From the IMG/VR virus record IMGVR_UViG_3300042478_002320, positions 1 to 64,000 of that record: a stretch of DNA of 64,000 bases. One strand, 5' to 3'. Shown here piece after piece: positions 36,019 through 50,948 of this stretch. Each line of letters begins with the position of its first letter. Position 1 is the first letter of the stretch. The position numbers and the translations under genes were made by a program. The DNA comes from a virus. The notes beneath the pieces were generated by a model that made no database searches, was not told where the DNA came from, and saw nothing but the letters and a program-made list of their open reading frames with translations.

Positions 36019-36142
36019 AGTCAGGTGGTGGAATGGAAGACACTGAAAAACTGTAATGAGGTTTGCCAATCCTCACGTTAAACAAAAAAGGTATCAGCGC
36101 AGAAGTGCGGAAGCATTGCAGGTTCAAATCCTGTCCTGACTA
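36019..36142 (+). ncRNA. tRNA-like RNA 1 (expanded anticodon domain)
   Basis: AGTCAGG/CCTGACT acceptor, GGTGGAATGGAAGACAC D arm, GCAGG-TTCAAAT-CCTGT T arm; about 74 nt insert with hairpins. Confidence 0.75.
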
Positions 36143-36217
36143 CTAAAAACATATTTGGAATTCTAAAAACTTTGTTCTATATTTGTAATATAGTTAACAG
36201 CAAAAAAAAACAAAAGT

Positions 36218-36604: not shown

Positions 36605-36633
36605 AAAAAGCTACTAACAAAATTATATAAAAA

Positions 36634-36957
36634 ATGGTATTTCAAAAACTAAAAAGAGTGTGGTCTCATAATGATATGAACTACATACCTAAATTCAGTG
36701 AAACTTTTCCTGAGTTAAACAAATTATCATACGAAGAAATGTGTGAGAGGTGGAAATCACTTGGAATTAAGTTTTACTCAGAAGAGAAAACAGAAATTAG
36801 TGTATGGATAAGATTTACATTACCTTTTGCATTTATCCTTTTTTTACTAATGTTTTTCTCTTTACCTTTAGTATTTATGATCAGAGGAAAATGGAGCTAT
36901 CCTCATGGCAAAAATAATTTAATACTAAATTGGTTTCGTTCTTTAGGATTAGAGTGA
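36634..36957 (+). CDS. Hypothetical membrane protein
   Basis: 107 aa with one TM segment. Confidence 0.6.
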   Translation: MVFQKLKRVWSHNDMNYIPKFSETFPELNKLSYEEMCERWKSLGIKFYSEEKTEISVWIRFTLPFAFILFLLMFFSLPLVFMIRGKWSYPHGKNNLILNWFRSLGLE

Positions 36958-36973
36958 GTTGAAAATAATATAT

Positions 36974-37050
36974 GGTCAGGTGGGCGTAATGAGGAACGGT
37001 TCCGAGTCCATTTAATGGTTGCTTATCAGGTTCGAATCCTGCCCTGACTA
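36974..37050 (+). tRNA. tRNA-like RNA 2 (non-canonical, anticodon undetermined)
   Basis: GGTCAGG/CCTGACT acceptor, CAGG-TTCGAAT-CCTG T arm; weak D arm and anticodon stem. Confidence 0.6.
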
Positions 37051-37143
37051 CAAATGTGTTGTTCCCTTGAGAAAGGAATCTCGTAAGTTCAAAAAAAAAG
37101 TCCGTAATGTAACTCAACACAGAGGGGTTCTCTCCCTCAAAAT

Positions 37144-37258
37144 AGTCAGGTGGCGGAATGGTAACGCAGGGGAAACCCGAGGGGATGTCACAGATGAGTG
37201 TTAAGATGAGTTTGAATCTCAGCTTCTCCTATTACAGGTTCGAATCCTGTCCTGACTA
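37144..37258 (+). ncRNA. tRNA-like RNA 3 (expanded anticodon domain)
   Basis: AGTCAGG/CCTGACT, GGCGGAATGGTAACGC D arm, ACAGG-TTCGAAT-CCTGT; insert with GGGAAACCC and TGAG/CTCA hairpins. Confidence 0.75.
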
Positions 37259-37321
37259 CGCAAAAAACATAAGATGGAGTTTCCTTGCCTTGTAAAAGGT
37301 GGGTTTTAAAAATCTAAAGAC

Positions 37322-37394
37322 AGTCAGGTAGCTCAATGGTAGAGCGGGTGCGTAATAGTAGTTGCCGTAGCAGGTTCGATTCCTGTCCTGACCA
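37322..37394 (+). tRNA. tRNA-like RNA 4 (canonical size, degenerate anticodon arm)
   Basis: AGTCAGG/CCTGACC, GCTC-AATGGTA-GAGC D arm, GCAGG-TTCGATT-CCTGT; anticodon stem does not pair canonically. Confidence 0.7.
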
Positions 37395-37415
37395 CTAAAC
37401 TAAAAACCAAAAATA

Positions 37416-37652
37416 ATGTTAGGAAAATTAATCATTGTTACACTTTATGTCTATGTATGTATTCCTCTTTCAAATGGAGGTAAGGAAGAGTATATAGAAA
37501 GGGCAGGAAGAGCCTCTTTTGAAGTACGAGGTACATTCACTAATACTGACTCTCTAATAATGGAGACTGTCAAAAAGTATGGAGTTGATCTCCAATATAA
37601 CTCAGTTAAGACTGAGATAGAGACATTAAGGATTAAATGTGAATGTAATTAA
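37416..37652 (+). CDS. Small hypothetical protein with hydrophobic N-terminus
   Basis: 78 aa between tRNA-like RNAs. Confidence 0.5.
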   Translation: MLGKLIIVTLYVYVCIPLSNGGKEEYIERAGRASFEVRGTFTNTDSLIMETVKKYGVDLQYNSVKTEIETLRIKCECN

Positions 37653-37669
37653 AAGTAATTATATTGTAT

Positions 37670-37797
37670 GGCAAGGTGGCGTGGCGGGAGGACGCAGGAG
37701 CACTATACGTTGGGTCGAGACTAACCTACTGAAAAGTAGTAATTTAAGAGATAAAAATGGGTTCTGTCTGTGGGTTCGAATCCCACCCTTGCTGCCA
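37670..37797 (+). ncRNA. tRNA-like RNA 5 with encoded CCA
   Basis: GGCAAGG/CCTTGCT acceptor, G discriminator + CCA, GTGGG-TTCGAAT-CCCAC T arm, long insert with CTACT-GAAA-AGTAG hairpin. Confidence 0.75.
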
Positions 37798-37842
37798 TAT
37801 AGTAATCAAAATCAAAATAAATGAACAAAAAAACATTAAATC

Positions 37843-38184
37843 ATGAAAAATGAATTCATTCCATACGAACAAGCGTTGGAACTAAAAGAACTTGGATTTG
37901 ATGAACCCTGTTTTGGTAAATTTTACTATAGTCATTTAGAAATTGGAGGAAATTGGCGTAATGATGATTTTAAAGAAGACCCTGATATTTTTATTTCGGC
38001 ACCACTATACCAACAAGTTTTTCGTTGGTTTAGAGAGAAGTATGGTGTTTATTTTCACCCACAAAAATTCGATGAAAGTAGATGGTGGATTCAATGGGGT
38101 TATTGGAATAGTTCTGTTTTCGAAACCTATGAAGAGGCTGAACTTGAATGTGTTAACAAATTAATAGAAATAGCGAAACTATGA
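37843..38184 (+). CDS. Hypothetical protein, paralog of 35231..36010 N-terminus
   Basis: YEQALELKELGFDEPC. Confidence 0.7.
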   Translation: MKNEFIPYEQALELKELGFDEPCFGKFYYSHLEIGGNWRNDDFKEDPDIFISAPLYQQVFRWFREKYGVYFHPQKFDESRWWIQWGYWNSSVFETYEEAELECVNKLIEIAKL

Positions 38185-38327
38185 ACATAGAAATAAGTTG
38201 GAATCATTTAGGAGGCAGTTGGTGGTTTGAATTAGGCATAGGTTGTCAGACAACAGAATATCATCCCAATAAGAAAATGGTATTTACGATATCTTTAGGT
38301 ATTGCTACTATTTATGTTAGATGGTAA
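38181..38327 (+). CDS. Small hypothetical protein (48 aa)
   Basis: ATGA overlap; MNIEISWNHLGGSWWFELGIG... Confidence 0.5.
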   Translation: MNIEISWNHLGGSWWFELGIGCQTTEYHPNKKMVFTISLGIATIYVRW

Positions 38328-38484
38328 AATCACAACATATTTGAATAACGGTGATAATCACTGTAGAATACTAAAATTTCAGACAAAAAACATTAACATA
38401 ACATTAACAAAATTAAAATTGACTATTTATAAAAAATAGATCATCTTTGCAGAGTCAAATTTTTTGAGTTACAAATCAACAAAC

Positions 38485-39438
38485 ATGAGTAAAATTGAAA
38501 AACTAACTCCTGAACAGGAGTCCAAATTAGAGTCTCACAGAGATAAGTGGTTGAGCAAGGTATTTAATTACGAATACTATAATAACCATGATGCTGCTAA
38601 AACAGAAGTTTCTATTAAGAAACTTTACAAATTCTGCGGGTTGTCAGAACCTGAAGTAATGCTTTTAGACAGCCCGATGGCTTGTCAAGTAAAAGTCAAT
38701 GAGTTATTAGGAAATGAAACTATGGTTTACGAACCGTTCTCATCCTACATCAACGTTGATGACATTTCTTGGCTATCCTTTTACAGCTTTTTTATGGACA
38801 ATTTTGATATCTTAGATGAGTTCAAAAAAGATTTCAACTTAATATCAGAATGTGTTGAGAACAGTTACCTTCAAATCCAAATGGATACTGTATGTTTAGT
38901 GTCTAAATATCCAAAGATAATAAACAGAAATGCCAACAAAGATTTACATTGTACAACAGGATACGCAATTGAGTTTGCAGATGGATATGGACAACACTAT
39001 GTAAACGGAAGATTTATTGAAGAGTCTGTATTCAATGAATGTATGACCTTAGAGAATGCTACGATTTTATTTCATACTCAGACTAATGAAGACATCAAAG
39101 CAGGAATTATTACAATAATCAAAGAGAATTTCGGTAACGAAGGTTTACTCAAGATGTTAGATGCTACTTTAGTTGATGAGAAGACTATTAAGCATGAAAA
39201 TGACTACGAGGAGATTGTTAGAATTTATAAGAGTAATAAATCTTATTCATTCTTACAGAATAGTAAAGGAGAGATGGATCAGCCATATGCATGGATTGAA
39301 TTCACTTGTCCGAGTACTAAATCTACTTATCTTATTGACACCTGCCCAACTTTTTCGGATGCAGTAGAATGTGCCAAATGGCATAGACCAAACAATGTAC
39401 CAAGTAGCCTTAGTTATATTTGGAGTTCAGCAAATTAA
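38485..39438 (+). CDS. DUF6745-like protein (no internal QV-repeat insert)
   Basis: KLTPEQ...W, P.V...DSP, WLSFYSFF, LHCTTGYAIEFADG...YVNG, FTCPST...Y; ATG at 38485 preferred over TTG 38464. Confidence 0.7.
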   Translation: MSKIEKLTPEQESKLESHRDKWLSKVFNYEYYNNHDAAKTEVSIKKLYKFCGLSEPEVMLLDSPMACQVKVNELLGNETMVYEPFSSYINVDDISWLSFYSFFMDNFDILDEFKKDFNLISECVENSYLQIQMDTVCLVSKYPKIINRNANKDLHCTTGYAIEFADGYGQHYVNGRFIEESVFNECMTLENATILFHTQTNEDIKAGIITIIKENFGNEGLLKMLDATLVDEKTIKHENDYEEIVRIYKSNKSYSFLQNSKGEMDQPYAWIEFTCPSTKSTYLIDTCPTFSDAVECAKWHRPNNVPSSLSYIWSSAN

Positions 39439-39452
39439 AATTAAAAAAAATT

Positions 39453-39842
39453 ATGAAAAGTAAGTTAAATTTCGACAAGAAGTCCTTTCACCAAGGAGAT
39501 GTTCAATTTTTCCAATTGAATAAACTACCGAAAGGCATTAAGAAGATTGAGAAGCAATTTATTGCTGCATCGGAAAGATCAGGAAGCTTTCATGCCCTAT
39601 TCGGAAATTATGACATCTACGAATTTGAGGATGGAGGATTCGTAATCGATGCTCACGAAGAATGCATCTTGAATCATTCATTACAATCAGAGCTAAGGGG
39701 TTTAGGCGTTAGTTTAGACAAAGCTATGATTACAGCTAAAAAAGACCATAGGCACACTGTTGTCCCTCCGGGTAAATACTTCGTTGGTATTCAAACAAGG
39801 TTTGATCCTTTAGAGAATGCAAAGAAGAATGTAACTGACTAA
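39453..39842 (+). CDS. QGDV-motif His-rich partner protein of DUF6745-like gene
   Basis: HQGDV, A.SE.SG..H, LNH, H..V..PG.Y.V..Q..FDP; ATG at 39453. Confidence 0.7.
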   Translation: MKSKLNFDKKSFHQGDVQFFQLNKLPKGIKKIEKQFIAASERSGSFHALFGNYDIYEFEDGGFVIDAHEECILNHSLQSELRGLGVSLDKAMITAKKDHRHTVVPPGKYFVGIQTRFDPLENAKKNVTD

Positions 39843-39863
39843 ATTTTAATTTGTTTGTTGTAA

Positions 39864-39905
39864 GTGTAAGGGGCATATATTGTATTAACATATATGCTCC
39901 TTCAC
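39864..39905 (+). other. Long stem-loop between QGDV gene and miniprotein array (no U-tract)
   Basis: GTG(T)AAGGGGCATATA pairs with TATATGCTCCTTCAC. Confidence 0.6.
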
Positions 39906-39921
39906 ATAAAAGCACATAGTT

Positions 39922-40140
39922 ATGGAAAATATAAATGATATTCTATTATCGCATATTCATAAAGTTAGAGATAAGCTATATGTTATAATAGGCACTCCTC
40001 AATCAGATGGAAATTATTTTAATGATACCATTGAAACAGATTTAGATATAAATTCTGATAATTTTGATACTATGAGTAATCAATTATGGGGAGATGTTGG
40101 TGATAATCTTAGGAGGTCTTTTCTCAAAAATACTAAATAG
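39922..40140 (+). CDS. QV-array miniprotein (divergent)
   Basis: MENI..NQLWGDV. Confidence 0.65.
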   Translation: MENINDILLSHIHKVRDKLYVIIGTPQSDGNYFNDTIETDLDINSDNFDTMSNQLWGDVGDNLRRSFLKNTK

Positions 40141-40142
40141 TT

Positions 40143-40343
40143 ATGAAAAATTTGCGAGAGGACATTCACGAAATCTTAGTCTACACCATTTTAAAAGAAA
40201 TGTGGGAAGAATCTAATACTAAAATAGTATTCTTTAAGATAGTAGAAGTTGAATATCATATCAAAGATAAAGTATCAGATCAATTATATCATAATATAGC
40301 TCTAAACCTAAGTGATGAAATCGATAAAAGATATAATCTTTAA
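40143..40343 (+). CDS. QV-array miniprotein (divergent)
   Basis: MKNL..KVSDQLY. Confidence 0.65.
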   Translation: MKNLREDIHEILVYTILKEMWEESNTKIVFFKIVEVEYHIKDKVSDQLYHNIALNLSDEIDKRYNL

Positions 40344-40563
40344 AAAATTAAGGAGTGGTATTATAGAGAATATTGATAATTCATTGAATACAGATATTCT
40401 ATCAGGAAGTGTAAAAGTTATCGTAATCATTACACTAATGCATAAAATTAAGGATGAGATGTGGATACACTATAGTATAGAAATCCAAATTAATTCAGCA
40501 TTAAATCGTGTTTTATATCCTCAAGGAAATCTTTTTAATCAATATCTACGAAAACCTGTATGA
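40315..40563 (+). CDS. QV-array miniprotein (divergent)
   Basis: MKSI..; ATG at 40315. Confidence 0.6.
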   Translation: MKSIKDIIFKKLRSGIIENIDNSLNTDILSGSVKVIVIITLMHKIKDEMWIHYSIEIQINSALNRVLYPQGNLFNQYLRKPV

Positions 40564-40745
40564 ATAAAATAGAAGACTACAGTGATATTATATGTAAAAA
40601 ATTTACTAATCCTATGAATGAGGCTTTAGTTAGTAGAGTATCAATTAAAGCTCAATCTTTAATTAGTTTCTATACATCTAAACCTACTATGAATCAGATT
40701 TGGAGTCAACTGTTTTTTACGGTTAAGCAGAATGTAAAACTATGA
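40560..40745 (+). CDS. QV-array miniprotein
   Basis: NQIWSQL..VKQNVKL. Confidence 0.7.
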   Translation: MNKIEDYSDIICKKFTNPMNEALVSRVSIKAQSLISFYTSKPTMNQIWSQLFFTVKQNVKL

Positions 40746-40749
40746 AAAT

Positions 40750-40977
40750 ATGAAAAACATAAGTAGTAGAATTAGAATTAGATGTTATGAATCACTTCAT
40801 AGTCTTATAAAAAAAATTGATAATAATGTAAAATCAAAAGCAAAAGACAAAGTGACTGATGATGTAGAGGTAGAAATTAACTCTCAGATATGGGAAAAAT
40901 TGCTTGATGGATCTTTTCATGGAATAGCTAATGATTCCTATACTTTAAATCACAAAGTAAAAATTGACAATGACTAA
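40750..40977 (+). CDS. QV-array miniprotein
   Basis: MKNI..SQIWEKL. Confidence 0.65.
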   Translation: MKNISSRIRIRCYESLHSLIKKIDNNVKSKAKDKVTDDVEVEINSQIWEKLLDGSFHGIANDSYTLNHKVKIDND

Positions 40978-41164
40978 AATTATAAACGTTTCAAGTAAAC
41001 TAAGTGAATTTACAAATAAAGTAATTCGAGACAAAGGAACAATACCTATCCGAAACAATGTTGCTTTACGTACATATGATAGAACCTTAGTATATATGTG
41101 GGGTTATGTAAATTTCAATATGTCTGTAAGAAATAATATTAGGTGGTTTATAAACAAAGAATGA
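40970..41164 (+). CDS. QV-array miniprotein (divergent)
   Basis: ATG at 40970; YMWGYV..VRNNI. Confidence 0.6.
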   Translation: MTKIINVSSKLSEFTNKVIRDKGTIPIRNNVALRTYDRTLVYMWGYVNFNMSVRNNIRWFINKE

Positions 41165-41168
41165 AGTT

Positions 41169-41372
41169 ATGAAAAATATAGGCGCACAATTAGCAAGTCA
41201 CATAGATAGCAAAACTTATTCTTCACTTATTCATAATAAATTGAAGAATCATTCGAGTTCTATAATATGGGTACATATTTGGAATGCTATAAGGAGTCCT
41301 ATAGATAATGAAATATCATTAAGGATATGTGCAGAAATATTTCATAGAATACGAAAAGATATAGATTTATGA
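41169..41372 (+). CDS. QV-array miniprotein
   Basis: MKNI..IIWVHIWNAI. Confidence 0.65.
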   Translation: MKNIGAQLASHIDSKTYSSLIHNKLKNHSSSIIWVHIWNAIRSPIDNEISLRICAEIFHRIRKDIDL

Positions 41373-41533
41373 TAAATATAGAGCATATCCTATGGGATAA
41401 AATACTTGAACATTTCTCAGATAACATACTTAATCAAGTACATTCTGAAGTTCAGACTTATATACAGAATGAGATAGGAAATCCATTGTGGACTCAAATA
41501 GATGATAGAATAGGAATAATTATGAAGTCATGA
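41369..41533 (+). CDS. QV-array miniprotein (54 aa, not in track)
   Basis: MINIEHILWDKI..NQVHSEV..PLWTQI; ATGA overlaps both ends. Confidence 0.65.
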   Translation: MINIEHILWDKILEHFSDNILNQVHSEVQTYIQNEIGNPLWTQIDDRIGIIMKS

Positions 41534-41730
41534 AAAGCGTAAGTAACAAGATATTAGATAGATTGTCTGAGATTGAACTAACTACATTTTGGAATAAATC
41601 AGTTGAAATGACAAATTCTAAGGTATGGCATCAAGTGAGGATGAACCTAAAATCTCCTGTACAAAATGAACTAAATATTCAGCTATGGACTCAAATAGAA
41701 CGTGCAGTAAAGAGAAAAGTTAGTTTATGA
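41530..41730 (+). CDS. QV-array miniprotein
   Basis: MKSV..KVWHQV..QLWTQI. Confidence 0.7.
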   Translation: MKSVSNKILDRLSEIELTTFWNKSVEMTNSKVWHQVRMNLKSPVQNELNIQLWTQIERAVKRKVSL

Positions 41731-41912
41731 AAAATATTAGAGGTTATTTACGGATTCGTATATGGTATAAGAGGAACAACTTTAGTTCCATAGCACAAAT
41801 TAAAGTCTTGAATACAGAAGAGAATGTAATAGGTCGTATTCTATGGGATCCTATAGTAGATCAAGTAGAGAGCCGGGTAAGTAGTCCATTAGAAATAAAT
41901 ATGAAATTATGA
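41727..41912 (+). CDS. QV-array miniprotein
   Basis: MKNI..LWDPIVDQV..NMKL. Confidence 0.7.
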   Translation: MKNIRGYLRIRIWYKRNNFSSIAQIKVLNTEENVIGRILWDPIVDQVESRVSSPLEINMKL

Positions 41913-41915
41913 GTT

Positions 41916-42140
41916 ATGAATAGTGTAGATACTACAGTAATGCGTATAGTAAAAAATCAACTATTGTATAAGATACTTGATGCAGTAAAATATCGAGTAG
42001 ATTATCAAGTAAAGAATGATGTAAAAGATGAGACAGTTAATAAAATATGGGATCAGATAGATAGTACATTATATTTTGAAGTAAAGGAACAATTAGGAAA
42101 ACAAGTATACTTACATAATTCTGTAAAACAAAATATATAG
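41916..42140 (+). CDS. QV-array miniprotein
   Basis: KIWDQI..VKQNI. Confidence 0.7.
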   Translation: MNSVDTTVMRIVKNQLLYKILDAVKYRVDYQVKNDVKDETVNKIWDQIDSTLYFEVKEQLGKQVYLHNSVKQNI

Positions 42141-42142
42141 TT

Positions 42143-42328
42143 ATGAAAAATATTGAAAATGAGTTAGTAAAATTTGATCGTGATACAATGTGGTTTATAT
42201 TATATGGTAATTTACATTTTCGTATAATTAATCAAGTAACTAATCAAATTTTACATCCTATAGGAAATACTCAAAGACATATGTCTCCTGTCACAGATGT
42301 TATTAAAATGAAAATATCGTTTAAATAG
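42143..42328 (+). CDS. QV-array miniprotein
   Basis: MKNI..NQVTNQI. Confidence 0.65.
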   Translation: MKNIENELVKFDRDTMWFILYGNLHFRIINQVTNQILHPIGNTQRHMSPVTDVIKMKISFK

Positions 42329-42363
42329 CCGATACGTAACAGAACTCAAACAATCATTAAATT

Positions 42364-42573
42364 ATGAAAACTACTAACTTAATAAATATCGATACATTGA
42401 TGAGTAACCATATAATAGATAACTATAGTATGCTATTATATAAAAAATTAAAGGTATCTATGGATATGAGTTTCAAAAATCTCGATAAACTATGGAGACT
42501 CGAAGAGGAAATTGGCGCACAGCTCATAGTTCAGATACGGGATAGAGTTGTTGTAAATTTAAAAATAAAATAA
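42364..42573 (+). CDS. QV-array miniprotein (divergent)
   Basis: KLW..AQLIVQIRDRV. Confidence 0.6.
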   Translation: MKTTNLINIDTLMSNHIIDNYSMLLYKKLKVSMDMSFKNLDKLWRLEEEIGAQLIVQIRDRVVVNLKIK

Positions 42574-42575
42574 AG

Positions 42576-42806
42576 ATGAATAATGTAAGAGCTATAATAC
42601 GAGATAAGATACCTCAAAAATTTAATTTAGAAACTATAACATCTAAATTTAGCACATCGGTAACTTCTACTGTAGAAGATTTTACAATTATTCCAATATT
42701 TGGAAAATTAACTTTTAGAGTAAGTGTTACAGTAAAGACTGTATTACTCGATACTGTGGGTGGGAAAATAGTTGGGGAGCTGCTCCCAAAATTTTTTAAA
42801 GCATAA
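42576..42806 (+). CDS. QV-array miniprotein (divergent)
   Basis: MNNV.., 4-residue hydrophobic spacing. Confidence 0.55.
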   Translation: MNNVRAIIRDKIPQKFNLETITSKFSTSVTSTVEDFTIIPIFGKLTFRVSVTVKTVLLDTVGGKIVGELLPKFFKA

Positions 42807-42818
42807 AAAACTAAAACT

Positions 42819-43016
42819 ATGCATAACGTAAAAGAAACTTTTAAGTCTAAAACAAAATTCTTCTACGAAAGGTTAAGTAAAACTCTAAGACATAAAGCAT
42901 CTGTTATTACGAGATTAACTGTAAAAATAAAATTTATTGATCTCATTTCTTCACCTGTATCTAAATTAAGTTCTGATACTGCTTTAAACTTAGAAAAAAC
43001 TAATATAAAAGAATAG
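42819..43016 (+). CDS. QV-array miniprotein (divergent)
   Basis: MHNV..TNIK. Confidence 0.55.
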   Translation: MHNVKETFKSKTKFFYERLSKTLRHKASVITRLTVKIKFIDLISSPVSKLSSDTALNLEKTNIKE

Positions 43017-43020
43017 TAAT

Positions 43021-43737
43021 ATGAATTCAGATATTATTAAAATACTTCTATCTGAAGAAGAGATTAAGTATATACTATCAAAATCTATGTGTAGTATAAA
43101 TATATCTCAATATAATCCTCTGAGATATAGAAAACCTATAACTCAATTAGATAGTTTATTTAGAGGATACTTAGGAGAATATGCTTTTTTTAAATATATG
43201 CTTGAAAAGGATATTACATTCTCTAAGATTAACTATAAAAAAGATGGAGAAAAGATAGATATGGACTTGTGTTACAAAGGTCTTAATGTCGAAATAAAAA
43301 CATCTATGATTCCTGATATAGATGACTGTATGTATAAAACTATTAATACAAGAGACATAAAACTTATTAGAAGAGAGAATAGCAGTATCGAAGATTTGCA
43401 AGGAGATATTCATATACAGATATTATTTAATACAAAAAGACATGAACATGATGAATGGATTTTGAGTAAAGATTTCAATATATCAAATCATGATGTAAAC
43501 TCTTTGTATAAATTTCTAAACGCTGAAATGTATAGAGATTGCATAAATTTTGTGGGTTGGGTAGATAAGAAAACTTTAGTTCAGCATATAAACAAACTAC
43601 CTGAAGAGGATAGATGTTGGTCATTCAGGAATTCAAAACATTCTATTTTTGAAAACTCAAAAAGATATTTTTGGAATTTTAAAATAAAGGATTCCCATAA
43701 ACCCTCTCTAATCATACCCTATTTAAAAAGTTTGTAA
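43021..43737 (+). CDS. PD-(D/E)xK endonuclease-like protein inserted in array
   Basis: GYLGEYAF, D.DL...NVEIKT, FVGW. Confidence 0.6.
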   Translation: MNSDIIKILLSEEEIKYILSKSMCSINISQYNPLRYRKPITQLDSLFRGYLGEYAFFKYMLEKDITFSKINYKKDGEKIDMDLCYKGLNVEIKTSMIPDIDDCMYKTINTRDIKLIRRENSSIEDLQGDIHIQILFNTKRHEHDEWILSKDFNISNHDVNSLYKFLNAEMYRDCINFVGWVDKKTLVQHINKLPEEDRCWSFRNSKHSIFENSKRYFWNFKIKDSHKPSLIIPYLKSL

Positions 43738-43833
43738 ACATTAACATAATTTTAACAAACACCTATTGATTTGCAAGAGAAGTATTATTATCTTTGCGAT
43801 GTTAATTATTCTAAACCACATAATCACATTGCC

Positions 43834-44301
43834 ATGATTAATATCCTATCTTCAGTTTACAATCTTACTAAGACCAATAATGGTATGTTCAAATCTGAGA
43901 AACAAGCTAATTTCTTGATTTCTCAATTTAAAGCATATGATGACTTTGTAGGCTTCTCTCCAAACGGAAAACCTATATTCGTAGAATACGATGATAAGGG
44001 TATTATAAAGATGTACAAAGATTTAGCATCAAACAAAACTGATATTGTATTTGAAAGAGTCGTTGAAGGATCTCTCAACTCTGTTGAGTTGAAGACTCTT
44101 AAATGGTATAAAAGTAAGGTTAAGAAAATTCAAAAGAATTTAGATGAATCTATTGCATTCGCAGAAAAAAAAGGATTATCTAACTATTCTGAATTTGAAT
44201 TGGAGGTATATCACAGAAGTAGAGAAAGTGATAGAACTCGTATAGCCGAGCTTATGGAGTTAATCGATGGTTTAGAAAGTAAAACAAACAAATTATTATG
44301 A
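43834..44301 (+). CDS. Hypothetical protein with own host-type promoter
   Basis: ATG 43834 downstream of TATCTTTG (43789-43796). Confidence 0.6.
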   Translation: MINILSSVYNLTKTNNGMFKSEKQANFLISQFKAYDDFVGFSPNGKPIFVEYDDKGIIKMYKDLASNKTDIVFERVVEGSLNSVELKTLKWYKSKVKKIQKNLDESIAFAEKKGLSNYSEFELEVYHRSRESDRTRIAELMELIDGLESKTNKLL

Positions 44302-44459
44302 TAAAGTATAAGATTGTAGATTGGATGAGTAATCATCTGTTCATTGATAAAGTATTTGACTCCTTTGAGGAGGGGTGGGATTTCCTGTATGAGCAGTTTC
44401 CTGATGAGGATAATTTTGATGACTATTATGTGGTACCTATTGAAAATGACGTATTATGA
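44298..44459 (+). CDS. Small acidic hypothetical protein (53 aa)
   Basis: MIKYKIVDW..FDSFEEGWDFLYE; ATGA overlaps. Confidence 0.6.
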   Translation: MIKYKIVDWMSNHLFIDKVFDSFEEGWDFLYEQFPDEDNFDDYYVVPIENDVL

Positions 44460-44701
44460 AGGAAGTAGTAAATAATATAGTAAGTAGTCAAGTGGGTGAA
44501 GAAGTGTGGGATCAATTATATTACCAAGTAATCTTTCAGGTAGATGTTAAAGTATGGAATACAGTGAAGAGTCAAGTAGATAATCAAATACTTAATTTAG
44601 TAAATCCTCAAATAGGGAGGCAAGTACGCATTCGGTTACAGGATAAACTAATGGAGCAATTAGCGAATCAAGTAGAAAATAATTTAGAACAAAATATGTA
44701 G
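44456..44701 (+). CDS. QV-array miniprotein
   Basis: EVWDQLYYQV..KVWNTV. Confidence 0.75.
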   Translation: MKEVVNNIVSSQVGEEVWDQLYYQVIFQVDVKVWNTVKSQVDNQILNLVNPQIGRQVRIRLQDKLMEQLANQVENNLEQNM

Positions 44702-44704
44702 TCT

Positions 44705-44911
44705 ATGAATAACATAGGAAGTGACACAGGAAAGATAGTATGCGAACAAGTAGATACCGCAGTAAGATTTAAAATTCGTAATGGCATAGTTAATAGCCCT
44801 GTTTTCTATAAACTATGTGGTCTACTAAGTAGTAAACTGAGTATCGAATTATGGAATCAAACAACAAGTAGAGTAGTGAGTCAATTAAGGATTTCAGTAA
44901 GAAACTTATAA
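44705..44911 (+). CDS. QV-array miniprotein
   Basis: MNNI..ELWNQT. Confidence 0.7.
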   Translation: MNNIGSDTGKIVCEQVDTAVRFKIRNGIVNSPVFYKLCGLLSSKLSIELWNQTTSRVVSQLRISVRNL

Positions 44912-44915
44912 ATTT

Positions 44916-45104
44916 ATGAAGAATATAGATAAGATGGTAGGAGATGTATTATACGATCAAGTTAGAGATGAGCTGAGAGTAAACCAAAATAGTAAAGTAG
45001 ATGTTAGGTTAAGTTTTCATCTGAGTGATAAACTATGGAATGCTACAAGAGGTCAGGTAATTTTGCAATTAAACAATATGCTTAAACGGAACTTAAAATT
45101 ATGA
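44916..45104 (+). CDS. QV-array miniprotein
   Basis: LYDQV..KLWN..RNLKL. Confidence 0.7.
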   Translation: MKNIDKMVGDVLYDQVRDELRVNQNSKVDVRLSFHLSDKLWNATRGQVILQLNNMLKRNLKL

Positions 45105-45295
45105 GTAATGTAAATATGCATCAAGTAAAAGATAAAATATGGATTGAAATACATTATACATTACGTAATCAACTACGGAGAGATGTAATGAATGTAGTTA
45201 AAAGTCATACTATATGGATTTATATATTGCATCAAGTACAGGATATAGTATGGGATCAAGTAAGAGATCGTATAGGACAAAACTTTAAATTATAA
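45101..45295 (+). CDS. QV-array miniprotein
   Basis: VWDQVRDRIGQNFKL. Confidence 0.75.
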   Translation: MSNVNMHQVKDKIWIEIHYTLRNQLRRDVMNVVKSHTIWIYILHQVQDIVWDQVRDRIGQNFKL

Positions 45296-45303
45296 AGAAT
45301 ATT

Positions 45304-45501
45304 ATGGTTGACCTGAGTAAGAAAATAAATGATGCAGTAAATCATATACCTAATAAATCTTATGATATATTATTTTTTAAAATGAAAGAAGAAGTATTAG
45401 TAAATACATGGAATATACTAAGAGTTCAAACAAGAGATCAATTACGAATTAAAATGAGACTTCGGATAACTTTTGAAGTATTTAAAAACATAAAAGTATG
45501 A
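45304..45501 (+). CDS. QV-array miniprotein
   Basis: TWNI..RDQL..KNIKV. Confidence 0.65.
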   Translation: MVDLSKKINDAVNHIPNKSYDILFFKMKEEVLVNTWNILRVQTRDQLRIKMRLRITFEVFKNIKV

Positions 45502-45668
45502 GAAATATAACTGAAAGAATAAATTACAGACTAAAATATTTGGGAGATGGATTTCTTATGGATTTATGGGAATTAATATCCAATAGATCATCAGATGACG
45601 TAAGGTTTAAGGTAAGAACTAAAGTATGTAATGTATACATAGATCAAGTAAAAAAGAATATGAAATGA
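45498..45668 (+). CDS. QV-array miniprotein (56 aa, not in track)
   Basis: MRNI..DQVKKNMK. Confidence 0.65.
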   Translation: MRNITERINYRLKYLGDGFLMDLWELISNRSSDDVRFKVRTKVCNVYIDQVKKNMK

Positions 45669-45802
45669 AAGGAGTTACTATTCATATATGGAGTAGAGTA
45701 TTAGATTTACGTAATAATTTACGAAAACCTATAGAAGATGAATTAAATGATCAGCTAAGTGCTCAGGTAGGAGTTCAACTTAGAAATTCCATAGTAGAAT
45801 GA
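45665..45802 (+). CDS. QV-array miniprotein (45 aa, not in track)
   Basis: MKGV..HIWSRV..DQLSAQVGVQL. Confidence 0.65.
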   Translation: MKGVTIHIWSRVLDLRNNLRKPIEDELNDQLSAQVGVQLRNSIVE

Positions 45803-45987
45803 AGAATTTGAATATAAAAATTGATGTTAAAGTTTGGGATCGAGTATATAGTGAAATAGAAAATGAAACAAACTATAAAGTATCAGGTCAAGTATGCAAA
45901 CAAGTAGGTGACCAAATAACTTTTCCAATACTAAATCAAGTACGGTTTCAAGTACGGAATCAAGTATCACAAAACGTAGAATTATGA
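45799..45987 (+). CDS. QV-array miniprotein
   Basis: NQVRFQVRNQVSQNVEL. Confidence 0.75.
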   Translation: MKNLNIKIDVKVWDRVYSEIENETNYKVSGQVCKQVGDQITFPILNQVRFQVRNQVSQNVEL

Positions 45988-46172
45988 AAAGAGTACAAAG
46001 TATTATGAATACTGAAACTATAAGTAAATTTTGGATTATTATAGAGCTTTCAGTATGTGAACAAGCAAGTAACGAAGTAAAGGTCAGAACGAGTGGTGAA
46101 TTAATTGATCCTATAAATAATGAATTAGGCACTCAATTGTGGAGTCAAATAAAACAAAACGTAAAGTTATGA
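45984..46172 (+). CDS. QV-array miniprotein
   Basis: QLWSQIKQNVKL. Confidence 0.75.
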   Translation: MKRVQSIMNTETISKFWIIIELSVCEQASNEVKVRTSGELIDPINNELGTQLWSQIKQNVKL

Positions 46173-46360
46173 AGAGTGTAAGAAATGTAGTAAGTAGTAG
46201 AATAAGAATCAAAGTAAAAGGTAAGATATGGAGTACTATAGGCATTCAAGCAAGGGACTTAGTAGAAGCTAAAATAGGAAGTAGTGTAAGAGGACAAATA
46301 TTTGATTCATTGTATATTGATGTGCAAGAAAACATAGACTATGAATATACTAAAAAATAG
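46169..46360 (+). CDS. QV-array miniprotein
   Basis: Likely start ATG 46169 (MKSV) at ATGA junction. Confidence 0.7.
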   Translation: MKSVRNVVSSRIRIKVKGKIWSTIGIQARDLVEAKIGSSVRGQIFDSLYIDVQENIDYEYTKK

Positions 46361-46529
46361 AGTAAATACTCAAGTATGTATTCAGGTAGGGGATAACTGT
46401 AAGACACAGGCATCTCAAAAATTATGGGATCAAGTAAGTAGTCGAGTATGGGGTTGTGTAAAAAGAGAAGTGTGGGGTTGTGTAAGTAGAGAAGTACGAA
46501 TGCAGGTAAAACAAAACATAAAGTTATGA
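46341..46529 (+). CDS. QV-array miniprotein
   Basis: LWDQVSSRVW..QVKQNIKL. Confidence 0.75.
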   Translation: MNILKNRVNTQVCIQVGDNCKTQASQKLWDQVSSRVWGCVKREVWGCVSREVRMQVKQNIKL

Positions 46530-46750
46530 AGAGCGTAAGTGAAGAAGTAAGCACTAAAGTGAATGATCAGATAACTGATGTAGTAAGCATTAAAGTAAGA
46601 AATAATCTATGGGGTCAAGAGGTGATTCATGTAGGTTTTGAAATACGCAATGAAGTATGGCATCAAGTTGGAAATAAAATACACAGTCAAGTACGCATTC
46701 AGGTATGTAATAGAGTAATGGTTCAATTACAACAAAACATAAAGTTATGA
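46526..46750 (+). CDS. QV-array miniprotein
   Basis: MKSV..EVWHQV..QQNIKL. Confidence 0.75.
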   Translation: MKSVSEEVSTKVNDQITDVVSIKVRNNLWGQEVIHVGFEIRNEVWHQVGNKIHSQVRIQVCNRVMVQLQQNIKL

Positions 46751-46971
46751 ATAATATAGAAAAAAAAGTATGGGATCAAGTAAGTAATCAAGTAAGGAAT
46801 CAGGTAAGTAATCAAGTAAGTGAGCAAACAACTATTTCAATATGGAATGAAATAAATAATCAAGTAAGTGGTCAAATATGGAATCAAGTAAATAATCAAG
46901 TAAGTGAAAAAGTGATAGATCAACTATGGAATGAATTTTTAAATAGATTTAAACAAAACATAAAGTTATGA
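46747..46971 (+). CDS. QV-array miniprotein
   Basis: VWDQVSNQVRNQVSNQV..KQNIKL. Confidence 0.8.
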   Translation: MNNIEKKVWDQVSNQVRNQVSNQVSEQTTISIWNEINNQVSGQIWNQVNNQVSEKVIDQLWNEFLNRFKQNIKL

Positions 46972-47162
46972 ATAATGTTAGTTATAAGGTTGGACAGAAA
47001 CAAGGACATGAAGTACTCAGTGGAGTAGGTGGAAAAATTTGGGAAGCTGATAAAGTATCAAAATCAGTAGTAGTTAAACTATATGTTCAAATAAATCAAC
47101 AATTAGTAACTGAGATGGGAGAGAAATTTGTGAGGCAACTATTACGAAACCTAAAGTTATGA
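46968..47162 (+). CDS. QV-array miniprotein
   Basis: MNNV..RNLKL. Confidence 0.7.
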   Translation: MNNVSYKVGQKQGHEVLSGVGGKIWEADKVSKSVVVKLYVQINQQLVTEMGEKFVRQLLRNLKL

Positions 47163-47326
47163 AGAGTGTAAAAGGTGGGGTAGAAGATAAAATACAAAAA
47201 CAATTACTATACCTAATGCAAGACAGAATAGGAAATCAAGCATGGAGTCAAACGAGGCAGCATCTAAGTATTCAGGTGACGATGCAATTGAGATGGAATC
47301 GAGTAGAACAAAACATAAAGTTATGA
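47159..47326 (+). CDS. QV-array miniprotein (55 aa, not in track)
   Basis: MKSV..NQAWSQT..EQNIKL. Confidence 0.7.
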   Translation: MKSVKGGVEDKIQKQLLYLMQDRIGNQAWSQTRQHLSIQVTMQLRWNRVEQNIKL

Positions 47327-47604
47327 AGAATATACAGAAACAAGTATCATTTCCATGTGATCAAGTATGGGTTAATTTAAGAGTTCGCATTCGAAGTACG
47401 TCAGGGAATGGAATAGAAAGAAAAGTGAGTGATGTAGTAAGTCATCAAGTGGTTAATTTAGTGACTAATAGAATGGTAGATCATGTACGGTATCATGTAC
47501 GGGATCATGTACGGTATCATGTACGGTATCATGTACGGGATTATGTACGGGATCATGTACGGGATTATGTACGGGATCATGTAGCACAAAATACTAATTT
47601 ATGA
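47323..47604 (+). CDS. QV-array miniprotein with expanded 12-bp (H/Y)VR(D/Y) repeat
   Basis: Start at ATGA junction 47323; about 8 copies of (C/T)ATGTACGG(G/T)AT. Confidence 0.75.
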   Translation: MKNIQKQVSFPCDQVWVNLRVRIRSTSGNGIERKVSDVVSHQVVNLVTNRMVDHVRYHVRDHVRYHVRYHVRDYVRDHVRDYVRDHVAQNTNL

Positions 47605-47792
47605 AGAGTGTGAGGAGTCATATATGTAATCAAGTGGCTGATAAACTATGTAGTCAAACAAGTACTCAAGTAAGGTTTCATGTATCTAAAAAATTATGGG
47701 ATCAAACAAGACAGTATTTAAGTACTCAAGTGAGAATGCAAGTACGGGTTTACATACGTATGGAAATACCTATGCAGATAAAAAAAATATAA
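47601..47792 (+). CDS. QV-array miniprotein
   Basis: KLWDQT..QVRMQV; an A8 run puts the NIKL end out of frame. Confidence 0.7.
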   Translation: MKSVRSHICNQVADKLCSQTSTQVRFHVSKKLWDQTRQYLSTQVRMQVRVYIRMEIPMQIKKI

Positions 47793-47796
47793 AGTT

Positions 47797-47973
47797 ATGA
47801 AGAATGTTAGGTACGAAGTATGGAGTAGATTATGGGGTAAAGTGGTAAGTCGCTTATGGAGTGAAAAAAATGGTATGGTGTATAATCAAGTATGGAATCA
47901 AGTTGGAGAGAGTATACATGAACAATTATCAAATCAAATTTCGGAACGAGTATCACAAAACATAAAGTTATGA
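47797..47973 (+). CDS. QV-array miniprotein (58 aa, not in track)
   Basis: MKNV..NQVWNQV..SQNIKL. Confidence 0.75.
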   Translation: MKNVRYEVWSRLWGKVVSRLWSEKNGMVYNQVWNQVGESIHEQLSNQISERVSQNIKL

Positions 47974-48188
47974 AGGATATGAGAAGTAAAGTAAGGGAGC
48001 AGATAGGAATTAGAATAGTGGATATAGTAGAAGTTAAAGTGTGGAATCAAGTATGGAGTACTATAGGCAATCAAGTATGGAACCAAGTAGTGAGGCAAGT
48101 ACTGACTCAAGCAAGAAATCAATTGAAACCTCAAGTAATTAACGATGTAAAACAAAATGTAAAATTATCAAAATTAAATTCACTTTAA
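47970..48188 (+). CDS. QV-array miniprotein
   Basis: KVWNQVWSTIGNQVWNQV. Confidence 0.75.
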   Translation: MKDMRSKVREQIGIRIVDIVEVKVWNQVWSTIGNQVWNQVVRQVLTQARNQLKPQVINDVKQNVKLSKLNSL

Positions 48189-48402
48189 TGTATTTTGTAA
48201 AACCATAGTTATGAAAGACCTGTACCCTTGAGAAACTCGTATTAGATATCATAAGTTAGGTATTGAGATAAGCAGGTCATCTCCGATATAAAAGGGTATT
48301 AGAATAAGGAGATATTTTATAATAAAGTAATTAAAAAAATTTTGGGAGCAGAACTTGACATTTCCAACATAACTCAGTATATTTGCAAAAACAAAAAAAC
48401 AT

Positions 48403-48900
48403 ATGTCAAACATACCCACCTCCCCACAATCCTTAATCAGGTCATTACCTGATTCTCTAAAAGAATTACTGTTTAAGCAATGGAATGCTAAACAGAATCC
48501 AACATGGCATCCTGAAGGAAATACCTTAAAGCATATCATTGTAGTTTTGAAGAGAGCATACCACAAGTATACAGATGATCCTAATATGATTATGGCAGCA
48601 TTGTTCCATGACTTAGGTAAGATGGATACTTATGCTATAAATCCTAAAACAGGACAACCTACTGCATATGGACATGAGCATAAGTCAGCTGATTATGTTA
48701 TTCAGTATCAAGATTGGATTTTAGCTTATGATGGAACTGACATAGAAACTATACACTTTATAGTTAAGAATCATATGTTGGTGAAATATCCTAATGCAAT
48801 AATTGAATCTATGAGACTATCTAAGCGTATACCTATAGAGAATCATAAATCATTTGATAAACTAATATTCTTTTCTACGATTGATAAGGGTGGTATATAA
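48403..48900 (+). CDS. HD-domain phosphatase resembling the HD domain of multifunctional CCA enzymes
   Basis: Q.P.WHPEG.TLKH, AALFHDLGK, GHE..SA, NHM; own TATATTTG promoter 48378. Confidence 0.75.
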   Translation: MSNIPTSPQSLIRSLPDSLKELLFKQWNAKQNPTWHPEGNTLKHIIVVLKRAYHKYTDDPNMIMAALFHDLGKMDTYAINPKTGQPTAYGHEHKSADYVIQYQDWILAYDGTDIETIHFIVKNHMLVKYPNAIIESMRLSKRIPIENHKSFDKLIFFSTIDKGGI

Positions 48901-48925
48901 GTGTTAAAAACTAAAACATAAAGTT

Positions 48926-49078
48926 ATGAAGAATGTAGGCAAACAAGTATGGAAGCAATTAAGTAATCAAGTAAGGAATCAGGTAAGTAATCAAGTATGG
49001 AGTCAAGTGAGGAATCAAGTATGGGATCGAGTATGGGAGCAAGTAGAGAATCAAGTAAAACAAAATATAAAGTTATGA
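48926..49078 (+). CDS. QV-array miniprotein (50 aa, not in track)
   Basis: MKNVGKQVWKQLSNQVRNQVSNQVWSQV..QNIKL. Confidence 0.8.
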   Translation: MKNVGKQVWKQLSNQVRNQVSNQVWSQVRNQVWDRVWEQVENQVKQNIKL

Positions 49079-49275
49079 AGGATGTAAGTGAAAAAATAAG
49101 TGATAAAATAGGTGGTAAAATAAGTAGTAAAGTATGGAAAGATGTATGGAACCAAGTATCGAAGGAAGTACAGAGTCAAGTAAAAGATAAAGTACGTATT
49201 CTATTAGGGGAGCAAGTAGAGAATCAAGTATGGGATCAAATAAGTACTATAGTAAGTAATAATGTAATGTTATGA
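49075..49275 (+). CDS. QV-array miniprotein
   Basis: Likely start 49075 (MKDV); KVWKDVWNQV. Confidence 0.75.
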   Translation: MKDVSEKISDKIGGKISSKVWKDVWNQVSKEVQSQVKDKVRILLGEQVENQVWDQISTIVSNNVML

Positions 49276-49514
49276 AAAATGTAAAAGGACAAGTATGGAA
49301 TCAATTAACTGATCAAGTATATAATCAAGTACAGAATCAAGTATGGAACCAAGTAGTGAGGCAAGTATGGTATCAAGTAGAAATTCAAGTATGGGATCAA
49401 GTAAGTAATCAAGTAGATGATCAAGTAAGTGATCAAGTAGAGATTCAAGTAGATGATCAAGTATGGGCACAAATAAGTGATGAAGTACGTAACCAACTAA
49501 AACAAACATATTAA
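49272..49514 (+). CDS. QV-array miniprotein (nearly pure QVxx repeat)
   Basis: QVWNQLTDQVYNQVQNQVWNQV... Confidence 0.8.
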   Translation: MKNVKGQVWNQLTDQVYNQVQNQVWNQVVRQVWYQVEIQVWDQVSNQVDDQVSDQVEIQVDDQVWAQISDEVRNQLKQTY

Positions 49515-49515
49515 T

Positions 49516-49788
49516 ATGAAATCACTAAATAACCAAGTACGTGACCAACTATTAAATCAAATACGTGGTCAATTAAATAAACATGTATTTGATAACGTAA
49601 TTGTTCATCTACATCTTCAAATAAGTAATAAATTATGGGCACAAATAAGTGATGAGGTAAATGTTCAATTAAAACGTAATATTACTGACCAATTACGTGT
49701 TAATTTACATGAACAAATATGGAATCGAGTAAGTGGTCAAGTGATTAATCAAGTATATAATCAAGTAAAACAAAACATAAAGTTATGA
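49516..49788 (+). CDS. QV-array miniprotein
   Basis: NQVYNQVKQNIKL. Confidence 0.75.
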   Translation: MKSLNNQVRDQLLNQIRGQLNKHVFDNVIVHLHLQISNKLWAQISDEVNVQLKRNITDQLRVNLHEQIWNRVSGQVINQVYNQVKQNIKL

Positions 49789-50006
49789 AAAACGAAAACA
49801 CCGATATAAGGTCTATTGTACGCAATGACATCATAGATTGTTTATGGGAAACTTTAGGAGAACGAATGGATGCAGATGATTCAGACAAAGCTTCCTTAAC
49901 TATAGTTAACAATGAACGTATGCGTATGAGGTTTGATCAATTGAAAAATTCTATTAGTTTTCAAATTAACCTTAAAATATCTGAAAGCAAATCAAAAATT
50001 CAGTAA
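49785..50006 (+). CDS. QV-array miniprotein (divergent)
   Basis: ATGA-coupled; LWE..DQLKN..QINLKI. Confidence 0.55.
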   Translation: MKNENTDIRSIVRNDIIDCLWETLGERMDADDSDKASLTIVNNERMRMRFDQLKNSISFQINLKISESKSKIQ

Positions 50007-50024
50007 ACAACAAAACATAAAGTT

Positions 50025-50288
50025 ATGAAAAATCAAAATCAGGTAGGATCCATTTACCTAAACGGTACAGTAGACGTAGCTGTAGACATTGACAACAGTT
50101 ATATCAAAATTCATATTGTAAACAATAAAACTAAAGAACTTATTGAAGGCTGCCACTTTCACTATAGTTCAGATAAGCTGAATAGGGATCTAAAAAACGA
50201 TATAAGGAAATACCTTATCGACACAACTTCGAGTAATAGCTATGCTGATACTATTATACATAATATAGTAAATCAGCTTAAAAAATAA
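50025..50288 (+). CDS. Hypothetical protein
   Basis: 87 aa; preceded by the array junction motif. Confidence 0.6.
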   Translation: MKNQNQVGSIYLNGTVDVAVDIDNSYIKIHIVNNKTKELIEGCHFHYSSDKLNRDLKNDIRKYLIDTTSSNSYADTIIHNIVNQLKK

Positions 50289-50310
50289 TTATATCATCGG
50301 TTTTCTTAGG

Positions 50311-50339
50311 GTGGGGGAGTCAGCTTCCCCACTTTTTTT
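50311..50339 (+). terminator. Rho-independent terminator closing the array operon
   Basis: GTGGGGGAG-TC-AGCTTCCCCAC hairpin + T7. Confidence 0.8.
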
Positions 50340-50405
50340 ATTTATTATTTGAGTATTCCGTATAAATCAACAAGTTTTATTTTTATCCCTATACACAAAT
50401 ATAAA

Positions 50406-50948
50406 TTAATATGGGTCATATTTAATTTCTTCAATAGTTATAGAATCATCATTAAATAATATATAATCATTTACACTACTTTTTAACCCATCTATACCAT
50501 TATTAAATAAAAATGAAGATGCTTTTTTATCACTACCTAAAATTCTTGATAAAGTTTTATAAAATATAAAACCCGTATAAGAAAATTCAACAACTTCATC
50601 AGATTTTTTATTATAGTCATTAAGTGCTTCTACAATTTTATTAACTATATATTCTTCAACAGGTTCCTTTAGATCTAATAAAAAGTATTCTTTTTTATTA
50701 TTAAAAAGTTTTACTTTATATATGTAATCACCATACTGTTTATTTGGTATATTTTCTGAAAAATAAAGTCCATATCCATATCTTTGCCTATTACCATCAG
50801 CACTAATATTTGATATATTAAACTTATTAAACATTTTTGGACTTCTATGATAAGCTATTATTTCTTCCGTAAATTGATTGGTTTTCTCATTCAAATATTC
50901 TCGGATTGTTTCATTTGTAATTGTTTCAAGAATGGTTTTGAGTTTCAT
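50406..50948 (-). CDS. ADP-ribosyltransferase-like protein (polyvalent-protein ART type)
   Basis: YH.S...F..F, YGYGLYFSE, YG.YIY.V.L, GIDG, YILF. Confidence 0.65.
   Translation of the reverse strand: MKLKTILETITNETIREYLNEKTNQFTEEIIAYHRSPKMFNKFNISNISADGNRQRYGYGLYFSENIPNKQYGDYIYKVKLFNNKKEYFLLDLKEPVEEYIVNKIVEALNDYNKKSDEVVEFSYTGFIFYKTLSRILGSDKKASSFLFNNGIDGLKSSVNDYILFNDDSITIEEIKYDPY

Follow-up and report, generated by a model that had tools for sequence, protein, structure and literature searches.

Proteins of the DUF6745 family (PF20530) occur in uncultured phages, in the model phage Ma-LMM01, and in filamentous cyanobacteria, where they form a widespread pair with a small partner protein carrying a QGDV motif; a literature search on 'DUF6745' found no paper, and the pair is without a literature of its own. 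In the fused forms of this family, an N-terminal helical domain and a C-terminal domain with invariant residues are accompanied by a repeat or non-repeat helical insert within the same polypeptide, and no free repeat genes lie nearby. The locus described here occupies positions 38485-50006 of a 64-kb stretch of phage DNA (the window, which is the first 64 kb of the 78.9-kb IMG/VR virus record IMGVR_UViG_3300042478_002320, itself estimated to be 42% complete). It shares the two domains, the invariant residues, and the QGDV partner of the fused proteins, but its DUF6745 protein, referred to below as the scaffold, lacks the repeat, and about 39 separate small genes (minis), whose repeat register equals that of the fused insert, are found beside it. 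A repeat-less DUF6745 gene accompanied by separate repeat mini-genes is a recurrent and previously undescribed arrangement, and the best reading of it, held here with moderate confidence, is that of a split holo-protein with exchangeable, variable helical modules.

Other described systems resemble this locus in part. Phase-variable Type I restriction HsdS cassettes and phage tail-fibre shufflons rely on silent cassettes and invertases, with one variant expressed. They diversify a constant machine with variable modules that recombine at conserved boundaries, as is proposed for the locus described here; unlike them, this locus gives every mini its own start and stop codon, and no recombinase was seen. 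In prochlorosin biosynthesis, one promiscuous enzyme of the ProcM group serves many precursors (PMC10783134), and SyncA substrates number up to 79 (PMC9872173). These ProcM/SyncM libraries likewise combine one constant protein with small products, dozens of them, that are hypervariable and conserved at their ends, but no LanM domain, Nif11-type leader, or Ser/Thr/Cys-rich core is present here, and the minis are tandem, translationally coupled, and phage-borne. In the burpitide pathways of plants, BURP-domain cyclases act with internal or stand-alone repeated core peptides (PMC11253845), and the repeated segment may thus lie inside the acting protein or in separate multi-copy genes beside a repeat-less version, as it does in the DUF6745 family. 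Burpitides are, however, plant rather than phage products with no relation to the present proteins in sequence or fold, neither the BURP Cys-His motifs nor the copper chemistry occur here, and the minis of the window look like folded helices and not like core peptides. The principal components of the locus, in which ORF denotes an open reading frame, aa amino acids, and AF2 AlphaFold2, are as follows.

38485-39438, + strand: repeat-less DUF6745-family scaffold, 317 aa (homologs, alignment A1, AF2 model, fold match)
39453-39842, + strand: small all-beta partner with HQGDV motif, 129 aa, 7 His (adjacency, conservation, AF2 model)
39922-43016, + strand: mini block 1, the most degenerate, with 15 ORFs of 54-82 aa (phmmer links 10 of 15)
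44456-48188, + strand: mini block 2, 19 ORFs of 45-93 aa (mostly ATGA-overlap junctions, common CAAAACATAAAGTTATGAA junction)
48926-50006, + strand: mini block 3, five ORFs of 50-90 aa, where QVxx repeats are purest (m35, m37)

Sequence comparison identifies the product of 38485-39438 as a true DUF6745 homolog, as the original prediction had proposed. The direct profile comparison put forward for this point fell short, with PF20530 matching residues 139-239 at 19 bits (E 9.5e-4), below the gathering score of 27 bits; kinship was established through homologs instead. The scaffold has 142 of these in protein databases, many annotated with PF20530 (including those at 65-79% identity), and the chain of homologs extends to cyanobacterial entries named 'DUF6745 domain-containing protein'. 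The motifs H155, DGY..NGR, NED, and C275-P-S-T are invariant (H155 and C275-P-S-T as seen in alignment A1), and the ATG at 38485 agrees with the N-terminus of the homologs (MSKIEKLTPEQ). The AF2 model of the scaffold is confident, with a predicted local distance difference test (pLDDT) score of 89, and among viral models (Foldseek, BFVD) it is matched best by the DUF6745 protein from Ma-LMM01, a Microcystis phage (E 4e-14). No solved structure resembling it was found with Foldseek in the PDB (E of 0.08 or above) or with VIA (Z of 5.4 or below, over partial ranges). Sequence profiles of the PDB yielded spurious ferritin matches to the repeat columns and nothing else, the ESM Atlas held no named relatives, and the only PADLOC match was that of the scaffold to CARF_PDDEXK at 17.7 bits, with none for the partner, the minis, or the cyanobacterial homologs. 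Literature searches on the repeat strings returned nothing but one irrelevant paper, and those on small genes of jumbo phages nothing relevant.

In many relatives of the scaffold, a four-residue repeat, 100-290 residues long, is placed precisely in the interval from the DSPxACQ helix to the Y.xFS.Y..GWLSFY segment, which agrees with the original prediction of an internal repeat between an SP motif and a W..FY motif. At this loop, QVxx repeat accounts for 100-250 residues in homologs of 430-565 aa (e.g., P0019, P0021, P0024, P0026), and the repeat takes other flavours elsewhere, namely SQLx in P0038 and P0046 and xNVx in P0068; it is common, not universal, in the DUF6745 family. In the window protein and its closest relatives, the interval between the N-terminal domain and the core is repeat-free and measures 7 residues, as opposed to 57-287 in the fused forms. 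A search for larger scaffold fusions returned P0038 only.

The partner encoded at 39453-39842 has the His-rich character and QGDV motif ascribed to it in advance, and its residues G15, D16, P26, E41, H47, H99, V127, and D129 are invariant. Its AF2 model is all-beta (pLDDT 84) and resembles no solved structure by Foldseek (E of 0.34 or above); the best VIA match, to a cereblon/Yippee-type fold (Z 4.0, root-mean-square deviation 4.2 over 70 residues), is not convincing. The expectation that DUF6745 proteins normally sit beside such a protein is borne out, the partner adjoining the scaffold in most phage loci with flanking DNA and lying directly upstream of the DUF6745 gene in 53 of 80 cyanobacterial loci. 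The pair is present in at least 214 cyanobacterial genome loci, where the copies stand alone among housekeeping genes (near topA in Nostocales), and these neighbours (topA, aroQ, chlB, znuA, and others) provide no functional hint. In Ma-LMM01 (NC_008562.1 154027-155558; locus L170), gp175 is the QGDV-type protein and gp174 a DUF6745 protein with a non-repeat insert, and the two are located between DNA polymerase gp178 and uracil-DNA glycosylase gp173, in a neighbourhood of genes classed as middle (PMC5780444).

The minis are 39 co-oriented + strand ORFs of 45-93 aa, arranged in three blocks 3' of the scaffold and partner. Their proposed translational coupling is apparent at 20 of the 38 junctions, which are 4-nucleotide (nt) ATGA overlaps, while most others are gaps of 1-12 nt. 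At E<1e-3, phmmer links 32 of the 39 (shuffled copies gave no matches), a period-4 hydrophobic periodicity with z>2 versus shuffles is found in 29, and 31 begin with M-[KN..]-x-[IVLM]. The ends of the units are conserved (MKN[IV]... and ...QN[IV]KL) and the middle is variable. The description of the array as about 39 paralogs built on a Q-V-x-x repeat therefore stands as to the number of ORFs and the linkage of most of them; clear Q-V-x-x repeats are strong in only about 12 units, mostly toward the 3' end, several units of block 1 show period-4 hydrophobicity without Q-V, and seven units are unlinked. Because a 65-codon open frame has a chance of only about 0.005 at the G+C content of the window, which is about 29% (our own estimate, not the output of a tool), 39 consecutive intact, phased frames cannot be ascribed to chance. 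ORFs on the minus strand or in alternative frames over the minis (45827-46132, 47458-47589, and 49270-49509, with LDxxLD or YxIPY repeats) were rejected as reading-frame shadows of the 12-nt repeat and are not genes.

The free-standing and internal repeats belong to the same profile. By position in the register, the minis have the composition Q / V,I,L / R,W,S,G / N,D,S and the fused insertions Q / V / R,G,W / D,N,A. A hidden Markov model (HMM) of the 39 minis matches 47 of 120 scaffold homologs at their internal repeat, with a best E of 1e-68, and none of the 120 when shuffled, as anticipated by the original prediction. Applied to about 2,300 ORFs of related loci, the mini profile matches solely free-standing repeat genes and scaffold insertions. 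A further profile, A2, built from 23 minis, gave 2,281 matches among 1.84 billion representative proteins; of the best 150 of these, 141 carry DUF6745 domains, and the repeat is therefore essentially specific to the DUF6745 family. A resemblance between the C-terminal QNIKL of the minis and the QKLNY at the end of fused insertions was also considered as a possible homology, is suggestive only, and was not used as evidence.

Relatives were surveyed at 31 viral and 56 metagenomic loci. Free-standing minis are absent from the flanks of every scaffold in this survey that has an internal repeat. The mini profile was also run over five fused-scaffold records in full, of which two are at least 90% complete, and it matches the scaffold gene only. 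Repeat-less scaffolds with minis, by contrast, are accompanied by 1-76 of them and belong to at least four separate lineages. Within the clade of the window, repeat-less scaffolds have 5-38 minis wherever several kb of flank exist, and the window and loci L002-L009 have 11-38 within 10 kb. The largest array seen, in the 168-kb record G001 (L169, G001:C1:121500-140500), comprises 76 stand-alone minis in about 15.6 kb, almost none of them orthologous to a unit of the window. Matches to the mini profile over whole records number 69 in G001 (where 76 ORFs were gene-called), 30 in the window record, and 19, 18, and 12 in others. The anticorrelation that had been forecast is thus found: free repeat genes were found only beside repeat-less scaffolds.

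Split lineages elsewhere in the family lie beside fused sisters of matching repeat flavour. Locus L011 has a 305-aa scaffold and two xNVx minis, and its fused sister L014 an xNIx repeat; L012 has two or three QV minis 2-5 kb away, with L025 and L026 (NV, QV) as sisters; and in L013 a TEVx repeat ORF overlaps the scaffold stop. L154, L156, and L158 combine a 360-aa scaffold with at least 15 SELx minis on both sides, which have termini of their own (MDSI[KR].. and ..EINQMIDNG), and the fused sister L165 carries NELx. At L011, further small, repeat-free ORFs starting MKTG or MRTG lie beside the xNVx minis (9012-9519 and 11849-13545) and may be fully degenerate members of that mini family. In a maximum-likelihood tree of the core domain, a quick IQ-TREE analysis with midpoint rooting, the window clade (100% support) is nested within the fused L140, L143, and L144. 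At least four supported contrasts between split and fused sisters all point in the same direction, and fission is the parsimonious one because the outgroups are fused, with the root being only a midpoint. The proposal that the repeat was moved out of the scaffold into separate genes is supported by these comparisons, and none of the tests named with it for its refutation went against it.

The same distribution bears on the alternative that the minis are independent, fast-evolving phage proteins (e.g., for host takeover), which descend from the repeat or converged on it and have no present tie to the scaffold. Recurrent loss of the scaffold repeat together with the appearance of same-flavour free repeat genes in at least four lineages is not what such independence predicts, nor is the absence of free minis from all fused-scaffold records examined; each split lineage has its own mini termini, and a predicted complex of scaffold and mini, described below, is positive where its controls have zero scores. 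The alternative draws on the location of the arrays, which may precede or follow the scaffold or be as much as 5 kb away (upstream in L004, at a distance in L005 and L012), on the unrelated genes that break up the array of the window, on the repeat-less scaffolds that lack nearby minis, and on the more basic and more degenerate nature of the minis compared with the fused repeats. Taken together, the two sides leave it quite improbable.

The minis evolve about 10 times faster than the scaffold. Among phages whose scaffolds are 95-99% identical, the ratio of nonsynonymous to synonymous substitution rates (dN/dS) is 0.39-0.58 for retained mini orthologs and 0.02-0.15 for the scaffold and partner, and for one-third of the units no ortholog reaches 60% identity. 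No mini orthologs are left at a scaffold identity of 86%. When the minis of the window are compared with the 76 of G001, whose scaffold is 76% identical, the median best identity is 29%, the same as among paralogs within the window. Fast evolution combined with non-overlapping repertoires is the hallmark of a locus engaged in an arms race or generating diversity. Substitutions are unevenly spread over the repeat, with the hydrophobic position the most conserved (7% changed versus 10-17% elsewhere). In a strain about 98% identical to the window, from another study, two deletions (44779>44922 and 49236>49470) each fuse a unit in frame with its neighbour; unit m31 has lost 60 nt (5x12), and additional DNA of unit size is present near 41400 and 41900. 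The junction CAAAACATAAAGTTATGAA, with its rare codons AAC and AAG, recurs at 9 or more boundaries, which fits recombination or gene conversion at the boundaries of units.

A junction conserved at the nucleotide level with rare codons, and strain differences that consist of unit-sized indels and a deletion of five 12-nt repeats, might also be expected if the array were a bank of recombination cassettes that stay silent, or simply repeat DNA prone to slippage, with ORFs that are unexpressed by-products. This explanation is very improbable in the face of other features of the array. In DNA that is A+T-rich and rich in stops, the 39 units here and the 76 of G001 are without exception intact frames that have an ATG and a stop of their own; the deletions of the strain leave hybrid ORFs that stay in frame; dN/dS values are less than 1, with constraint that varies with repeat position; and in alignment A1 the scaffold gene of array-bearing phages has neither a repeat nor an acceptor site.

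Binding between scaffold and mini, as called for by the original prediction, is predicted by structure modelling with scaffold alignment A1 and alignment A2 for unit m37 (49272-49514). The models have interaction prediction scores from aligned errors (ipSAE) of 0.68, 0.71, and 0.76, and the best control 0.00; the median, 0.71, is reached by 58 of 80 solved complexes and by 2 of 110 mismatched pairs. Contact agreement between runs is at least 19% and the pLDDT of the partner chain at least 76. Modelled contacts, with helix-on-helix spacing, involve scaffold residues 12-27, 47-53, 64-75, and 79-120, which flank the former insertion point at 75/76, as well as 129-177 in the conserved domain. The model supports docking of the mini at the insertion site of the scaffold, with packing that would be equivalent in cis and in trans.

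Contacts with the conserved C-terminal domain (143-177) are, in addition, what would be expected if scaffold and mini were enzyme and substrate. In such a scheme, akin to the biosynthesis of peptides made by ribosomes and then modified post-translationally (RiPPs), DUF6745 and its His-bearing partner would modify or cleave the repeat, in cis when it is fused and in trans on a library of mini precursors. The invariant H155 and C275-P-S-T of the scaffold and E41/H47/H99/D129 of the partner could serve catalysis of this kind, fused and split architectures both occur, the minis have conserved ends and a variable middle, and there are precedents for fused/split and multi-precursor systems (PMC11253845, PMC10783134, PMC9872173). 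The modelled interface, however, spans the whole mini, as for a structural subunit, and the most conserved repeat position is hydrophobic, which is typical of a folded helix. The conserved N-terminus of the minis extends over about four residues and does not resemble a leader, searches of the scaffold, the partner, and the neighbouring genes with Pfam, PHROGs, NCBIfam, and PADLOC reveal no domain known from modifying enzymes, proteases, or exporters, and the cyanobacterial copies are solitary. A RiPP-like function, the chief alternative to the preferred reading, is judged unlikely.

The preferred reading, that of a split holo-protein with exchangeable modules, can be set out as a mechanism. 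Most members of the family are a single polypeptide composed of an N-terminal helical domain, a repeat of variable length with the pattern [Q/N/E/S]-[V/L/I]-x-[small polar], and, at the C-terminus, a conserved alpha/beta domain. In the clade of the window, the repeat would have been lost from the scaffold gene and come to be encoded as free-standing helical minis, one of which at a time may dock in trans on the N-terminal helices of the scaffold beside the former insertion site, thereby rebuilding, with the constant QGDV partner, the holo-protein. Of the four repeat positions, only the hydrophobic one would be buried, leaving three exposed, and exchange of minis would present a variable surface with alternative binding specificities. 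Tandem duplication, divergence, and recombination at conserved junctions would have generated the roughly 39 alternative modules here and the 11-76 in relatives, in repertoires that differ almost completely between related phages. A more specific version, in which the two-protein core with any of 11-76 fast-diversifying helical specificity modules forms a combinatorial recognition system against variable host factors or defences, is doubtful though conceivable, and host-defence targeting or decoying as its purpose, as voiced in the original prediction, is pure speculation.

Several points weigh against the split holo-protein. The direction of change, fission and not fusion, depends on a midpoint-rooted quick tree. 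The array-rich phages all belong to one clade, and the independent contrasts number 4-5, one of which (L013) has a long branch. The scaffolds of L116, L117, and L155 are repeat-less or of the non-repeat kind, and the 3-10 kb available there contain no minis. Seven of the 39 units (m01, m06, m12, m14, m15, m29, and m39) are not demonstrably homologous to the rest, and their membership is based on position, size, and termini. As for the complex, alignment A1 includes fused homologs and the alignments were self-made, and the positive result may therefore partly reflect knowledge by the model of intramolecular packing; the contact agreement of only 19% or more makes the register of the repeat on the scaffold uncertain.

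Other features are interspersed with the minis or delimit the array.

43021-44459, + strand: three non-family genes interrupting the array, 238, 176, and 53 aa (no match to the mini profile)
48403-48900, + strand: HD-domain protein inside the array, 165 aa (Pfam HD at 19.8 bits, just below cut-off)
50308-50335, + strand: terminator-like hairpin closing the + strand block (12-base-pair stem with 6 G-C pairs, then a T run)

The three genes at 43021-44459 have no Pfam, PHROG, NCBIfam, or convincing PADLOC match. The HD-domain protein matches phrog_6931 and phrog_2244 (tRNA nucleotidyltransferase category), the latter match reflecting similarity to the HD portion of phage tRNA nucleotidyltransferases, and the best sigma-70-like promoter match of the region is found just upstream of its gene, at 48355-48383. 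The hairpin at 50308-50335 is the only strong terminator-like site in 37800-50500.

The phage itself has left near-identical DNA in 20 lake-water metagenome runs from 2020-2024, identified by a sequencing-run search, and no RNA run is listed among those that match. Among GenBank phages, there is no DNA match to the window, and the scaffold has one weak protein match. Records of its relatives are 168-270 kb long, and the window phage is therefore taken to be a tailed phage of the jumbo type from freshwater. To the left of the array, the minus strand (9064-14373) carries baseplate wedge and tail-fibre-like genes, and a DNA methyltransferase (phrog_116, E 4e-74) is encoded at 62401-63657, also on the minus strand.

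In the phage group of the window, the pair lies near tRNA-like elements and an HD-domain gene, which offers leads from context. The tRNA-like region of the window covers 36019-37797, in which ARAGORN recognizes one tRNA, of undetermined anticodon, at 37322-37395. The string RFESCPDY in ORF translations of this region is the T-arm sequence GGTTCGAATCC read as protein, and translations containing it recur beside DUF6745 genes in L004, L012, and L155. Paralogous proteins at 35231-36010 and 37843-38184 flank the region on both sides and have a common N-terminal ALxLKELGFDEPC domain (phrog_25117, unknown function). In L004, the scaffold and partner are followed, within 12479-19346, by genes for an RNase T-like exonuclease, an AAA_33 kinase, a metallophosphatase, DUF4326, and an RNA ligase, a cluster that resembles those of RNA repair.

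The relation between fused and split forms provides a first testable statement on a pair that is widespread in cyanobacteria, uncultured phages, and Ma-LMM01, namely that the four-residue repeat is a separable module working with the scaffold, and gp174 and gp175 of Ma-LMM01 offer a tractable experimental system for it. If the minis are indeed alternative subunits, the locus would represent a new viral way of encoding a protein repertoire, at the protein level and analogous in logic to variable-receptor systems, and its small helical binders, with one docking scaffold in common, would make up a natural library.

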